DNA from: Octopus vulgaris
Taxonomy: Eukaryota
Assembly: GCA_951406725.2 (NCBI GenBank)
Contig: OX597819.1
Span: forward strand, 101,928,001 to 101,992,000
Length of the DNA stretch: 64,000 nt
Direction of reading: 5' to 3'
Part shown: positions 16,925 to 61,371 of the stretch, one piece after another
How positions within the stretch are numbered: position 1 is the first letter of the stretch
How the letters are laid out: every line of letters begins with the position of its first letter
Notes under the pieces: model-generated
The model's database searches: none
Told to the model about the DNA's origin: nothing
The model's input: only the letters and a program-made list of their open reading frames with translations
Made by a program: the position numbers and the translations under genes

Positions 16925-17015
16925 TTTTAGCTGATGAGTACGGGACACGTTTATATGCTGCAATTTTTGCAACTTTTAATAAAGCCTGTCTTTGTATGAA
17001 ACGATTGTACTAAAA
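16925..17015 (+). ncRNA. Type I minimal hammerhead ribozyme, canonical core
   Basis: TTTTAG - CTGATGA - 60-nt helix II (GTAC...GTAT) - GAAA - CGATTG - TA - CTAAAA. Helix I is 6 perfect bp. The host fragment is flanked by TA tracts on both sides. Confidence 0.8.
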
Positions 17016-22062: not shown

Positions 22063-22099
<37 letters not shown>

Positions 22100-22145
22100 T
22101 ATCTGAACGAATGGAGTTGAACGACTGGTTAACAAATATCCTTTA

Positions 22146-22228
22146 TTCTCGACATATGTTTCGAAGGCTGTATATTCCTAATTCCGAAGGAATAAGGAGT
22201 ACATTATGCAGATTTCTCTTCAGGAAAA
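22146..22228 (-). ncRNA. Type I minimal hammerhead (mirror copy)
   Basis: Reverse complement of the 22340 motif, with the core intact. Confidence 0.72.
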
Positions 22229-22339
22229 TCAAAGAAACTTATGTCGACATCAAAATGCACAAATTATCGCCATGGGCTCCTTGAGAGCGGTCAGCTAAAA
22301 GTTTTTTGTGCATTTTGATGTCGACATAAGTTTCCTTGA

Positions 22340-22422
22340 TTTTCCTGAAGAGAAATCTGCATATTGTACTCCTTATTCCTTCGGAATTAGGAATATGCAG
22401 CCTTCGAAACATATGTCGAGAA
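22340..22422 (+). ncRNA. Type I minimal hammerhead with extended helix II
   Basis: TTTTC - CTGAAGA - 54-nt helix II (GAA..CTGCATATT...AATATGCAG..TTC) - GAAA - CATATG - TC - GAGAA. Confidence 0.8.
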
Positions 22423-22627
22423 TAAAGGATATTTGTTAACCAGTCGTTCAACTCCATTCTTTCAGATACTTATAATTTTAAAATAAACATACAAATTTCC
22501 GCACGAAGACACGTAGTCTAGGTCCTAGCGACGTAGCTTCAATCGTGTTCTTTCTGATGTGAATTTGCTACCCAGTTATCGGTTATCTTTCGAATTATCC
22601 TTAATAAGATAATTCATTCAATTACTC

Positions 22628-44696: not shown

Positions 44697-45862
44697 CACG
44701 ATGGGGTACCCTAAAGTAAACGTAAACTTTCTCTGTGGTACAAGCCCATTGTAGTTCATGCTTCCTCTGCTAGAAGCTACTGGATGCAAACCTCAGGCAC
44801 CAGTATGCCGACCGGCGTCGTCAACTGAATTCGTACTGCCACGTAGTCTGTCTTTGTTTTGCAGTGTTTCTTTCCTGATCGTCGATTTTTGCTGATGCCA
44901 TAAAACGAAGAAAGAACGTGCGTCTGTGGGATTCTGTTCCCTACTGGGGAAAATGGTGGTCGGAACCAATGCCATACTGCAAACAGCTTACAAGGGCGCT
45001 GCCATGAGCAGAACACACGTTTACGAGTGGTTTCCATACTTTAGGAATGGTCACTTATCACTTGAAAATCAATTTCGTTCAGTGTGATCGTCGACCTCCC
45101 GAACGAAAGAAAATATCATGAAAATTCCTGAACTGTCTTTGGATAACCGTCACCGAAGCATTGACGAATATGCTGATATGACTGGTGTGTCCTGGATCTG
45201 CAAGAGCAAACGGCAGCCGAAACTGTTGTCATGCTTCAAACAGCTTACAAGGGCACTGCCACAAGAAAAACACATGTTTACGAGTGGTTTTCACACTTCA
45301 GAAATGGTCACTTTTCACTTGATGACCTACCTTGTGCATTACGGCTGTCGACCTCCCGAATGAATGAAATTATTATGAATAAACAAGAACCGTTCTTGGA
45401 GGACCGCCACAGAACAATTGACGAACATGTCGATATGACCGGTGTGTCCTGGAACCCCTGCCAACTGATTTTCAGCGAGAAATTGCGAATGAAAAAATTG
45501 CAACAAAATTTGTGCCTCGCTTGCTCGCGGAAGATCAAAAGCAGTCATGATGAGAATGCGTATCGTGAACTGAAAGAACAGTTGGAAGTTGGTCCGGACC
45601 TTTATTCGAGTCATCACTAGTGACGAAAGGTGGTGCTACGGAATCTGCAGATGTGGAACTGGCGAAGAAATGATCGACTGTGGTGTTAAAACACATCACT
45701 GCCCAAGAGTTCCATCATTACTTTCAACAGTGGAAAACGCATCTGGACCAATGCTTTGCTTCAAATGGAGAATATTTCGAAGGCGATAAAAGTGTAAGCA
45801 TGTAAAACTGAGCGAACAAAATAATATTGCAAAATTTCAGTTTCGACTGGGTTCGTCTTCGT
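44697..45862 (+). mobile_element. Decayed mariner with duplicated N-terminal segment
   Basis: LQTAYKG...THVYEWF..FRNG...DMTGVSW occurs twice, followed by KFVPRLL and RVITSDERW. Eroded TIR-like ends. Confidence 0.8.
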
Positions 45863-48813: not shown

Positions 48814-48941
<128 letters not shown>

Positions 48942-50208
48942 CAGTGGTTCGACAAAATAATGGAATTACCAAGCATTATAGCATCATAATTTTGAAATAT
49001 CGATAAAACCGTCAAAAGCTTGTTTATTTTTGTTGTTTTTTATTCATTATTAGTGTTGTTTAATTTGTTTTGCTAAAATTACTGTTTCTTTTCAGATATC
49101 ATCAGAAAAAGGTAATTACAATTCATTAAAATGACAGATCTGTCGAACTTTCAAAGAGGTCAAATTGTTGTTGCTCGTACGACTGGCGCTAGCGTAACGA
49201 AAACAGTTGAAATGTTTGGTGTATCAAGAAGTACTGTCTCAAAAGTAATAACAGTCTTTGAGAAAGAGGGAAAAACTTCCTCGTCGAAACAAAACTCCGG
49301 AAGAAAAGCAAAACCTACAGATAGGGATAGTCGGACCTTACGCGAAATGTTAGAAAGGATCAGAAAAGGACAGCTCCCAAAATTACTGCGGAGCTTAATG
49401 ACCACCTCGAGAACTCAGTTTCCGCAAAGCTGGATTTCACGGGAGGACTGCAATCAGAAAAACCACTACTTTTAAAGACAAATTTTGCAAAGTGTTTAGA
49501 TTGGAGTAAAAACCTACAGAATTGGTCCCTAGAGCAATGGAAGGATATTATTTTCTCGGACGAGTCATCCTTTGCCTTATTTATGACTACCGGCCAAGTA
49601 TACGTGTGGAGACAGCCAAAAGAAGTATTTGACCCAGACGGCCATCATCCAACTGTTAAACATGGAAGATGATCTGTAATGATCTGAGGTGGGGTGGGAG
49701 CTACATCTTGGAAATCCACCGGCCCAAAGGTTTCCCTTCATGGCATTATTAATAGCCATGACTTTTTAAGCATTTTATCTGACCAGATTCATCTAATGCT
49801 TCTGGAACTGTTTCCAGGGGGGGAAATGCAATCTTTCAGGATGATAATGCACCAATTCACACAGCTAAAGTTGATGCTGAATAGCACGAGGAACACTAGT
49901 TAAGTTGAACATCTTATCTGGTCACCACAGTCCCCAGATCTCAATATTATTGAACATTTATAGCGCATTTTCGAAAAACAAGTAATGAGTCAATATTCAC
50001 CATCATCATCTCTAGAAGACCTGGAGACTGTTTTAATTGAAGAATGGAGAAAAATTCCTTTGGAAACAATTCAAACTGTGTACGAGTTCATACCTCGTTG
50101 AATTCAAGCTGTAATTACTGCCAAACGATGTCCTACGACATATTAAAAAAATTAAAATAATTTTGTTTTGAAATGTTAAGGTGTTTCCATTATTTTGTCG
50201 AACCCCTG
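48942..50208 (+). mobile_element. Full-length but inactivated Tc1 (DD34E) transposon
   Basis: TIRs CAG(T/G)GGTTCGACAAAATAATGGAA, with TA on both sides. Transposase MTDLSNFQRGQIV..., FSDES, QDDNAPIH and SPDLNIIE, broken by frameshifts and stops. Confidence 0.93.
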
Positions 50209-50218
50209 TATATATGTA

Positions 50219-50716
50219 TATTGGGATCGCCTAAAAGCCTTGAAACTCTACTCTCTCTCCAGCGTCGCCGTGAGCGGTACATCATTTGTACGATGTGGAG
50301 AATATACCGCCAACTTTGCCCAAACGACCTGAACATTAGCTTCAAGGTTCATCCAAGACTGGGACCACGGGCCATACGTCCCCTGCCAAATTTAAGATCA
50401 CAGAATATATGTACACTGCAACATTATTTCTTTTCCTCAACAGGCCCTGTCCTATTTAACAGTGTCCCGAAAGGAATCAAAGAGGAAAAGGATCCCATCA
50501 ACTTTAAACGGAGTCTGGATAGATTCCTTCAAGGAATTCCAGATGAGCCACCCATAATTGAATACAACTCACCCAACAAAAACTCACTACTTGAATGGAC
50601 CATAAAAAAAACTTGACTTAAACAGGATTTAGATAACCTTATCAGGTGGTGCTATTAAGTTAGACGTGGCCTGGACCAATCTTTGGTCGAAACATATCTA
50701 AGTTTTATCGAAGTAT
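50219..50716 (+). mobile_element. CR1-group LINE 3' end (ORF2 C-terminus and 3' UTR)
   Basis: LQRRRERYII...GPVLFNSVP...FKRSLDRFL..IPDEP. Terminal hairpin GACCAA-TCT-TTGGTC. Confidence 0.88.
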
Positions 50717-50763: not shown

Positions 50764-51452
50764 ATTCAAGTAGTGAGTTTTTGTTGGGTGAGTTGTATTC
50801 AATTATTGGTGGCTCATCTGGAATTCCTTGAAGGAATCTATCCAGACTCCGTTTAAAGTTGATGGGATCCTTTTCCTCTTTGATTCCTTTCGGGACACTG
50901 TTAAATAGGACAGGGCCTGTTGAGGAAAATAAATTATGTTGCAGTGTACATATATTCTGTGATCTTAAATTTGGCAGGGGACGTATGGCCCGTGGTCCCA
51001 GTCTTGGATGAACCTTGAAGCTAATGTTCAGGTCGTTTGGGCAAAGTTGGCGGTATATTCTCCACATCGTACAAATGATGTACCGCTCACGGCGACGCTG
51101 GAGAGAGAGTAGAGTTTCAAGGCTTTTAGGCGATCCCAATAATCGAGAGCAGCCATGCCTTCAATTCGTTTAGTGAGTGCCCTCTGGGGTGATTCAATCC
51201 TCGAGATGTTTTGTCTTGTATGAGGAGACCACAGTGGGCAGCAGTATTCGAGGTGTGGCCGTACAAAGGAGGAGAAAAGTGGTATGATGACACCTTGTTC
51301 TCTGGACCGGAAAGTACTTAAGATCCAGGAACTCATTCTACGAGCTATATCGGCCTTATTGTTGATGTGTGCACTCCAACTGAGATCGTCATCAACAATT
51401 ACACCCAGGTCTCTGATATTGTTAGAGGCTGTAAGCGGTTCCCCTGGAGGAA
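50764..51452 (-). mobile_element. CR1-group LINE fragment, inverted relative to 50219-50716
   Basis: IRDLGVIVDDDLSWSAHI...VRPHLEYCCPLWSP...YWDRLKALKLYSL. 50764-51141 mirrors 50219-50596. Confidence 0.9.
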
Positions 51453-51806
51453 TATATATATATATACACACACCTGTCGTTGTCTATTTACAATACTTTT
51501 TTATTATTATTACGTAACAGGACGCAACGCAACCCGATTCTTATTAATGATAGGTTATATATATATATATATATTTATATATGAGGATAATATCGATATC
51601 TAAGTGTCGAAATTATCAAGTGGCCAGCATGAAAGAAATACCTTAGAAAGGTAAAAAATTTTAACAATTAAAAATGAGGGTGTCTAAAAGACACCAACAT
51701 GCCGAAATAGCAGTCGAAACTCTGACTGTAAAACCACGTTAAATGTTCATATCGCACCATGAGGCAAAGCGGAGGGACAAAACATACAAGCAAAAATTAT
51801 TGAATA

Positions 51807-51866
51807 ATTCAAGATCCAAGGATTTCTGGTTCTGCTTTAGATAAGCTTTACCGTCATCAATTGAAT
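51807..51866 (-). ncRNA. Minimal hammerhead, C3U variant (inverted copy)
   Basis: Reverse complement of 52200-52259. Confidence 0.65.
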
Positions 51867-52199
51867 ATATCAAGGGTACATAAATACAGATATATATATG
51901 CACAGCAAACGATATACTTACATATACGAGCGTCGTACATACATACATATGCACGTATGGACACAGCCAGTTTGAATCGTCCGCCAAATCACCGCATAAG
52001 TACGAAATGGTTAAAATAAGCACCGTTATTATATTCACTGCGGTGCTTATTTTAACCATATCGTACTTATGCGGTGATTTGGCGGGCGATTCAAACTGGC
52101 TGTGTCCATACGTGCATATGTATGTATGTACGACGCTCGTATATGTAAGTATATCGTTTGCTGTGCATATATATATCGGTATTTATGTACCCTTGATAT

Positions 52200-52259
52200 A
52201 TTCAATTGATGACGGTAAAGCTTATCTAAAGCAGAACCAGAAATCCTTGGATCTTGAAT
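52200..52259 (+). ncRNA. Minimal hammerhead, C3U variant
   Basis: ATTCAA - TTGATGA - 27-nt helix II (GGT..GCTT..AAGC..ACC) - GAAA - TCC TT GGA - TC - TTGAAT. Confidence 0.68.
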
Positions 52260-52681
52260 TATTCAATAATTTTTGCTTGTATGTTTTGTCCCTCCGCTTT
52301 GCCTCATGGTGCGATATGAACATTTAACGTGGTTTTACAGTCAGAGTTTCGACTGCTATTTCGGCATGTTGGTGTCTTTTAGACACCCTCATTTTTAATT
52401 GTTAAAATGTTTTTTACCTTTCTAAGGTATTTCTTTCATGCTGGCCACTTGATAATTTCGACACTTAAATATCGATATTATCCTCATATATAAATTTATA
52501 TAATTCGTTATTATATTCACTGCGGTGCTTATTTTAACCATATCGTACTTATGCGGTGATTTGGCGGGCGATTCAAACTGGCTGTGTCCATACGTGCATA
52601 TGTATGTATGTACGACGCTCGTATATGTAAGTATATCGTTTGCTGTGCATATATATATCGGTATTTATGTACCCTTGATAT

Positions 52682-52741
52682 ATTCAATTGATGACGGTAA
52701 AGCTTATCTAAAGCAGAACCAGAAATCCTTGGATCTTGAAT
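52682..52741 (+). ncRNA. Minimal hammerhead, C3U variant (tandem copy)
   Basis: Identical to 52200-52259, 482 nt downstream. Confidence 0.68.
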
Positions 52742-52871
52742 TATTCAATAATTTTTGCTTGTATGTTTTGTCCCTCCGCTTTGCCTCATGGTGCGATATG
52801 AACATTTCAGTCAGAGTTTCGACTGCTATTTCGGCATGTTGGTGTCTTTTAGACACCCTCATTTTTAATTG

Positions 52872-52910
<39 letters not shown>

Positions 52911-60966: not shown

Positions 60967-61371
60967 GGATAACCACTAGGTGGATACCCAATATGCTAGA
61001 AGATCACGTACGATCTAACTACAAAGAGATGCAGAATTTAGCGCGCCAGAACATAGACATTTGAAAATAACCCCAATGTAATCGGTGGAGCTAAGCACAT
61101 GTTTTATAAGAACAACTAGTGTTTAGTTTTACAAATTATATTGAATTGGAACGATCGTACTGACGAGTCTGCGGACGAAAAAATTACGTAATTTATCGGT
61201 AATTGACAAAACCGGTCGACGATTAATTTTTGATTTTTATATATATTCATCTGTCTTGCCCGCTTATGTTGTGGTGTTAGCTAAATTTCTCTAGAGAACA
61301 TTCTTTTTTTTGTAGTTAGATTCGTATGTGACCTTCTTCTAGCACATTGGTTATCCACCTAGTGTTTATCC
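60967..61371. mobile_element. Inverted-end element containing a degenerate hammerhead (61154-61223)
   Basis: Arms of about 60 bp (GGATAA.CACTAGGTGGATA.CCAAT...CTAACTACAAA). Internal ATCGTA - CTGACGA - GTC...GAC - AAAA - CCGG - TC - GACGAT. Confidence 0.7.

Follow-up and report, generated by a model that had tools for sequence, protein, structure and literature searches.

Penelope elements and their non-autonomous retrozymes carry hammerhead ribozymes (HHRs) as a conserved motif. Penelope insertions are described as biased to microsatellites, with copies in partial tandem, another one inverted next to them, and typically palindromes at the junction (PMC8557442, PMC3846280); (TA)n is preferred by nearly all Hydra families (PMC8557442), and PMC4209133 reports pairs of HHRs on opposite strands at a distance of 100-700 bp. 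For the anole element PAc, PMC11167929 reports reverse transcription from two internal sites in vitro, cutting of AT-rich DNA, an HHR whose cleavage requires protein, and normal insertion in vitro of HHR-dead PAc RNA, uncut RNA being the main substrate. In metazoan non-LTR retrozymes, 10.64898/2026.07.22.740005 reports no cleavage in eight of nine Xenopus dimers. Here, we report a 482-nt hammerhead family from a 64-kb stretch of DNA (the window, whose positions are used throughout). At a probability of about 0.6, we consider the locus to be one insertion event of a non-autonomous retroelement of Penelope type (non-LTR retrozyme kind) that was copied in trans into (TA)n, with uncut multi-unit RNA as the template; its ribozyme is predicted to be slow, as the core is altered in both forms of the family. 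The geometry is already known; the new part is that both abundant family forms are without the canonical core.

The locus holds three copies of one unit. Copy B (52024..52505, plus strand) is one full 482-nt family unit with a GC of 35%. Copy C (52506..52874, plus strand, 369 nt) follows in tandem at a period of exactly 482 nt (starts 52024 and 52506), stops at unit position 52404, and is identical to B over the 369 aligned nt except for a 12-nt deletion relative to B (52326-52337), an identity from which a recent formation of the copies is plausible. Copy A (51566..52025, minus strand, 460 nt) is inverted, corresponds to unit positions 52041-52502, and meets B head to head with a 2-nt CG overlap. 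A preliminary description of this DNA spoke of three 482-bp copies, which is right for B and not for A and C; its near-perfect hairpin with a 15-nt loop is borne out, with arms at 51566-52025 and 52041-52502 that differ, in B coordinates, by five substitutions (52060, 52086, 52178, 52468, and 52496) and one 2-nt indel. The loop (52026..52040, no strand) is the unit start and recurs in C at 52508-52522, i.e., by comparison with copy C it is not foreign DNA. Both ends lie in (TA)n, as was also described: on the left, the end of copy A runs into a (TA)9T tract (51556..51574, no strand, (TA)9 itself being 51556-51573), which is likely one half of the target, and on the right is a (TA)18 tract (52873..52908, no strand). 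A 16-nt AT palindrome at the unit end (52487..52502, plus strand) is the common 3' end of the family against (TA)n. Within it, TATAAA stands 30 nt upstream of an initiator-like TCACT (52517-52521), and copy A begins 4 nt past the TCACT point; to call this site at the unit joint a promoter is a weak guess in such AT-rich DNA. A MITE or foldback DNA element was ruled out, since the family unit is head-to-tail and C extends past the hairpin. The earlier statement that there is no credible ORF agrees with our analysis: none of the three open frames tested reaches the Pfam cut-off (the best is a sub-threshold DUF3112, E 0.007), and the locus has no ORF with RT and GIY-YIG endonuclease as in an autonomous Penelope-like element (PLE). 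By eye, intron-like signals are seen 3' of the HHR at 52279-52340 (a GT donor-like hexamer, a branch-like hexamer, and TTTTACAG), and the 12-nt deletion of copy C takes out most of the branch-to-acceptor stretch.

The combination of an inverted copy, a tandem copy, and (TA)n reads, by analogy, as the standard Penelope insertion pattern, which the preliminary description missed; the partial tandem and the adjacent head-to-head inverted copy are both present in the 64-kb window. Hydra-clade PLEs, as described in PMC8557442, likewise have (TA)n targets and an inverted 5'-truncated copy with a partial tandem; unlike them, the 482-nt unit has no RT or GIY-YIG ORF. The solo or trans-mobilised pLTRs of Adineta vaga Penelope (PMC3846280) show the same two direct repeats and one inverted repeat, head to head with a short inversion overlap, and a TATA-like box about 20 nt before TCACT; there, however, the direct repeats flank an ORF or a captured gene, whereas the units abut here, and target duplications are visible, whereas (TA)n hides any at our locus. 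With the Poseidon element PAc of Anolis, the locus shares AT-rich targets and two recurring 3' ends downstream of the HHR, but PAc is autonomous with a canonical C3-G8, and its start spacing is 30-40 nt versus about 98 nt in the 482-nt unit (PMC11167929). Compared with the metazoan non-LTR retrozymes presented in PMC7229834 and 10.64898/2026.07.22.740005, the family likewise consists of non-coding units joined head to tail, each with a single type I HHR, a low GC, and a dimer-dependent helix III; it is perhaps also alike in being present in RNA, X11 being a probable RNA run. Its 482 nt fall inside the 51-972 bp retrozyme range of 10.64898/2026.07.22.740005 and exceed the roughly 220-390-nt units tested in 2020 in PMC7229834, and a copy in inverted orientation sets it further apart from the latter, whose main text nowhere uses the word "inverted". 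It departs from these retrozymes as described by its core, UUGAUGA or CCGAUGA versus CUGANGA.

The region was searched in public sequencing runs: of 24 runs listed, 20 contain some of it; they come from 11 studies and several organisms, with a best share of 0.56 of the sampled words. The family data are contigs of X1, X2, and X11 (organism A) and X5 (organism B) placed on unit B; X17-X20, with small shares, and 16 other listed runs were left out of the evidence. Contigs matching unit B number 883 in X1, 194 in X2, 1106 in X5, and 57 in X11, and 29 of 29 bins are covered in each, i.e., other genomic copies, on which the preliminary description had made its proposal depend, exist as a multi-copy family in all four runs. 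The head-to-tail joint 52505->52024 is found in four of four runs, with a summed depth of 6808 in X1, 476 in X2, 26 in X5, and 14 in X11, where contig depth is not equal to copy number; X5 has mostly a variant joint (depth 3266). The joint 52505->52024 sets the family period at 482 nt and shows that the B|C joint is not peculiar to this locus. Just 0-12% of the contigs per run continue into unlike sequence, so no abundant ORF-bearing form is apparent. Among the 24 loose-end rows listed out of 273, ends into (TA)n occur after 52502, which is the end of A, in 21 contigs of X5 and two of X11, and after 52397, near the end of C, in two contigs of X2; insertion in a microsatellite with recurring 3' ends, by which a non-autonomous Penelope-type element is recognized, is thus found here. 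In X2 and X5, the 3' half of the unit is deeper, which might reflect 5' truncation, although contig depth cannot rank parts.

These joints and ends also bear on a reading in which the family is satellite-like DNA with a relic HHR that spreads at the DNA level, the local inversion and duplication coming from repair at fragile (TA)n. That A, B, and C share bases unlike the family majority (all three, e.g., at 52301; A and B at 52422) would fit such a history, as would the 378-nt, 99% inverted duplicate of a LINE piece 400 nt away and the unequal crossover proposed for retrozyme arrays in 10.64898/2026.07.22.740005. We nevertheless regard it as improbable: the B|C joint is shared with the family and is no local product, the 3' ends of A and C are seen again elsewhere, the helix around the HHR described below is specific to the HHR strand, and an unrelated second HHR element beside (TA)n has the same head-to-head geometry.

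The inversion joint of this locus was found in the contigs of none of the four runs, so the local three-copy arrangement is seen in the 64-kb window only. X1 and X2 lack the G52178 that is private to B and C (contigs drop rare variants), copy A has the family base at 52178, and the four runs may come from other individuals or species than the window source. An assembly artefact, with the family real and the arrangement not, could account for the missing inversion joint and for the best run holding only 0.56 of the region's sampled words, and inverted plus tandem structures are known to trouble assemblies (PMC8557442). Such an artefact would, however, have to produce arms that differ at five sites and an indel, a deletion of its own in C, flanks that are not mirror images, and two ends that match family-type ends, in a window without N; we consider it very improbable.

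Each copy carries a type I HHR fold with a helix I of 6 bp, the UUGAUGA core, a C.A mismatch, a helix II of 3+4 bp, GAAA, a self-complementary helix III, and a predicted cut that follows UC. The motif of copy A lies at 51807..51866 on the minus strand (core start 51860, predicted cut after 51813), that of copy B at 52200..52259 on the plus strand (core 52206-52212, predicted cut after C52253), and that of copy C at 52682..52741 on the plus strand (core start 52688, predicted cut after 52735), and the earlier account of two same-strand HHRs 482 nt apart and a third one antisense, all with UUGAUGA, is accurate (cores 52206(+), 52688(+), and 51860(-)). In B, the core bases are U3-U4-G5-A6-U7-G8-A9 with a C.A mismatch at 10.1/11.1, GAAA is at 52240-52243, the self-complementary helix III is at 52243-52252, and the predicted cut site follows UC. 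The HHR motif is not chance: a relaxed HHR descriptor, which allows one change at core position 3 or 4 and was drawn up after the motif was seen, matches only copies A, B, and C in the real window; it matches none of 20,000 dinucleotide-shuffled units and nothing in 40 whole-window shuffles. Rfam reports no hammerhead in the whole window at gathering score, nor at E<=10. Its miRNA matches, all below gathering score, come from the long hairpin and were set aside. The folding of a single HHR is unremarkable (z -0.14 to -0.40). A full monomer HHR fold is impossible, as it would have a 2-nt loop, and the dimeric HHR is the minimum of the two-copy co-fold (-23.5 versus 2 x -9.0 kcal/mol); the HHR therefore forms only as a dimer. 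In a B+C transcript, the minimum is 7.9 kcal/mol below the forced dimeric HHR.

The C.A at 10.1/11.1 is not counted as a defect, because mismatches of this kind are common among Hydra-clade HHRs: by our count, File S2 of PMC8557442 has a 10.1/11.1 mismatch in 15 of 25 Hydra-clade HHRs, and C.A itself in one non-Hydra PLE. The Hydra-clade pLTR HHRs described there also resemble ours in a helix III that is self-complementary, 3-4 bp long, and closed by a loop of 1-3 nt, and in their place near the 3' end. As such a mismatch and a short helix III are ordinary for Penelope HHRs, only U3 is unusual in the window HHRs. The HHR here matches neither the Hydra-1_Obim HHR nor the other rows of PMC8557442 that were compared, and the HHR cores listed in that source, unlike those of the 482-nt family, all have C3 and U4, as its descriptor demands.

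UUGAUGA is also the majority core of the family, with 71-91% of summed depth in the contigs of the four runs, and CCGAUGA is the minority, i.e., the U3 that the preliminary description had wondered about is indeed the family consensus. T>C at 52206/52207 amounts to 17/16% in X1, 19/19% in X2, 29/30% in X5, and 9/9% in X11, and both changes stand together on one contig in X2 and in X11; from their near-equal depth and co-occurrence, the family has two forms, a UUGAUGA majority and a CCGAUGA minority. Each is one step from CUGAUGA, and neither has the canonical CUGANGA core with the C3-G8 pair. As an upper guide to canonical CUGAUGA, C3 exceeds C4 by 0.4% in X1, by 0.2% in X5, and by 0 in X2 and X11; since contigs drop rare variants, rare canonical masters may exist. 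A-to-I editing was rejected as the source of the CC core, there being no signature of it and the transition types being balanced. U3.G8 is expected to lower hammerhead activity; our search of open-licence papers found none on its effect. PMC3088659 describes C3-G8 as a pair covarying to U3-A8, and U4C as weaker in vitro but sufficient in a viroid.

What had been proposed from this locus is a candidate retrozyme. Its kind stands, i.e., a head-to-tail family with a dimer-only HHR, whereas the release of a 482-nt monomer or circle is weakened because U3 opposite G8 is the family majority, and by the 7.9 kcal/mol cost. In an active retrozyme, the dimeric HHR would cleave in spite of U3 or C4, the 482-nt monomer would be closed into a circle, and B+C would stem from rolling-circle reverse transcription; this reading is in our judgment unlikely. 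In its favour, B and C differ over 369 aligned nt by the deletion alone and have the private base at 52178 in common, the dimer fold is the co-fold minimum, and none of the 40 difference rows listed out of 60 places a substitution in helix I, helix III, or GAAA. U4C is reported to be active enough in vivo in a viroid (PMC3088659), C.A-like mismatches are common in PLE HHRs, and, since the anole HHR needs protein to cleave (PMC11167929), weak cores may receive help in vivo. The probable RNA run X11 contains, furthermore, the unit with its joint (57 contigs, 29 of 29 bins); however, the RNA status of X11 is our guess and it may hold DNA, the joint seen there is the unit joint, which is also in DNA, and contigs cannot show RNA ends or circles. 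Against activity, besides the energetic cost in the B+C transcript, stand the majority core with U3 opposite G8, where the natural covariation described is U3-A8 (PMC3088659, PMC4209133), and the eight of nine uncleaved Xenopus dimers. The stability of a circular monomer (z -6.5) was dropped as evidence, since 6 of 25 control stretches of the window are as low. Because the core is not canonical and cleavage and circles are putative, we file the family as a retrozyme variant and not as a proven member.

It is possible, though we would put it forward only tentatively and below even odds, that two subfamilies each broke the canonical core by a different single change (C3U; U4C) while keeping the dimer fold and the enclosing helix, selection having tuned the ribozyme down or made it dependent on Penelope protein, because uncut RNA is the insertion substrate. 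If true, the family would be a natural experiment on the role of the hammerhead in Penelope elements. In any case, it brings two natural core variants together with the inferred canonical ancestor in the same backbone. The 482-nt family would escape searches that require CUGANGA. In the open-licence papers searched, we found no description of the 482-nt family or of UUGAUGA/CCGAUGA cores, and a metagenome scan for the HHR pattern gave 0 matches.

A long G.U-rich helix is predicted to enclose the HHR, with its 5' strand at 52057..52100 and its 3' strand at 52275..52318 (both plus strand). It amounts to -40.8 kcal/mol on the HHR strand versus -22.7 antisense, and none of 108 shuffles equals it in strength; among control stretches, 9 of 40 do, and of those low in microsatellite, 2 of 24. 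On one X11 contig, 1 of 10 changes breaks the helix (P=0.017); in two X1 loose-end stretches, none of 14 changes breaks it and there are two compensatory pairs (P=0.005, unphased and by eye), the two stretches separately being not significant (P=0.17 and 0.26). As family changes respect the long helix, the sequences suggest that the RNA of the HHR strand is under selection. Taken over the unit as a whole, unpaired positions are not clearly richer in variable sites (of 38, 18 are unpaired, 10 kept, and 10 broken; P=0.054).

For a non-autonomous Penelope-type element, we propose the following course of insertion. A transcript would cover two or more units, perhaps from the weak TATA/initiator-like site at the unit joint. 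A Penelope RT-endonuclease, probably of the (TA)n-targeting Hydra type, would nick (TA)n, and reverse transcription would start inside the RNA at either AT-rich point, at unit positions of about 52404 and 52502. Copying through intact HHRs would give C+B, and a second priming or fold-back would add the head-to-head copy A; the HHR, formed only as a dimer, would cleave little, by which whole-unit copying would be favoured. Copy A probably comes from a different template unit than B/C, or was changed by later conversion, as the five substitutions and the indel between A and B, together with the family base of A at 52178, make one RNA an unlikely source of all three copies. As to an autonomous partner, the unit motifs have no match in the Penelope consensus supplement of PMC8557442, in which line breaks could hide matches.

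The window, which looks octopus-like, is microsatellite-rich, with 197 tandem-repeat rows and a GC of 27-42%, and contains further inverted and hammerhead-like structures. At 22094-22474 is an unrelated head-to-head inverted pair with 170-nt arms, four mismatches, a 41-nt spacer, and its left end in (TA)n; each arm has a canonical minimal HHR with a CUGAAGA core, G10.1-C11.1, and a palindromic helix III, and the pair is likely the ends of another Penelope-type family. With this second inverted HHR pair in the window, the inverted geometry is ordinary in this genome. An isolated CUGAUGA...GAAA at 16931-17009, with a 60-nt helix II region, matches a loose descriptor and not the stricter one and is probably chance. 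Directly beside the locus, 50219-50710 and 50764-51450 are two LINE-like pieces, tail to tail, with 378 nt in common at 99%; we take them to be LINE from a protein motif, Pfam being without a match. At 48940-50210 is a decayed Tc1/mariner-like DNA transposon in (TA)n, with terminal inverted repeats and an HTH domain match, and at 44970-45617, a 257-nt tandem duplication lies within a mariner-like transposase relic. Finally, an element with 60-nt terminal inverted repeats occupies 60967-61371, and near 61160 within it are CUGACGA, a short hairpin, and a GAAA core (helix I not evident by eye), then a 14-nt palindrome.
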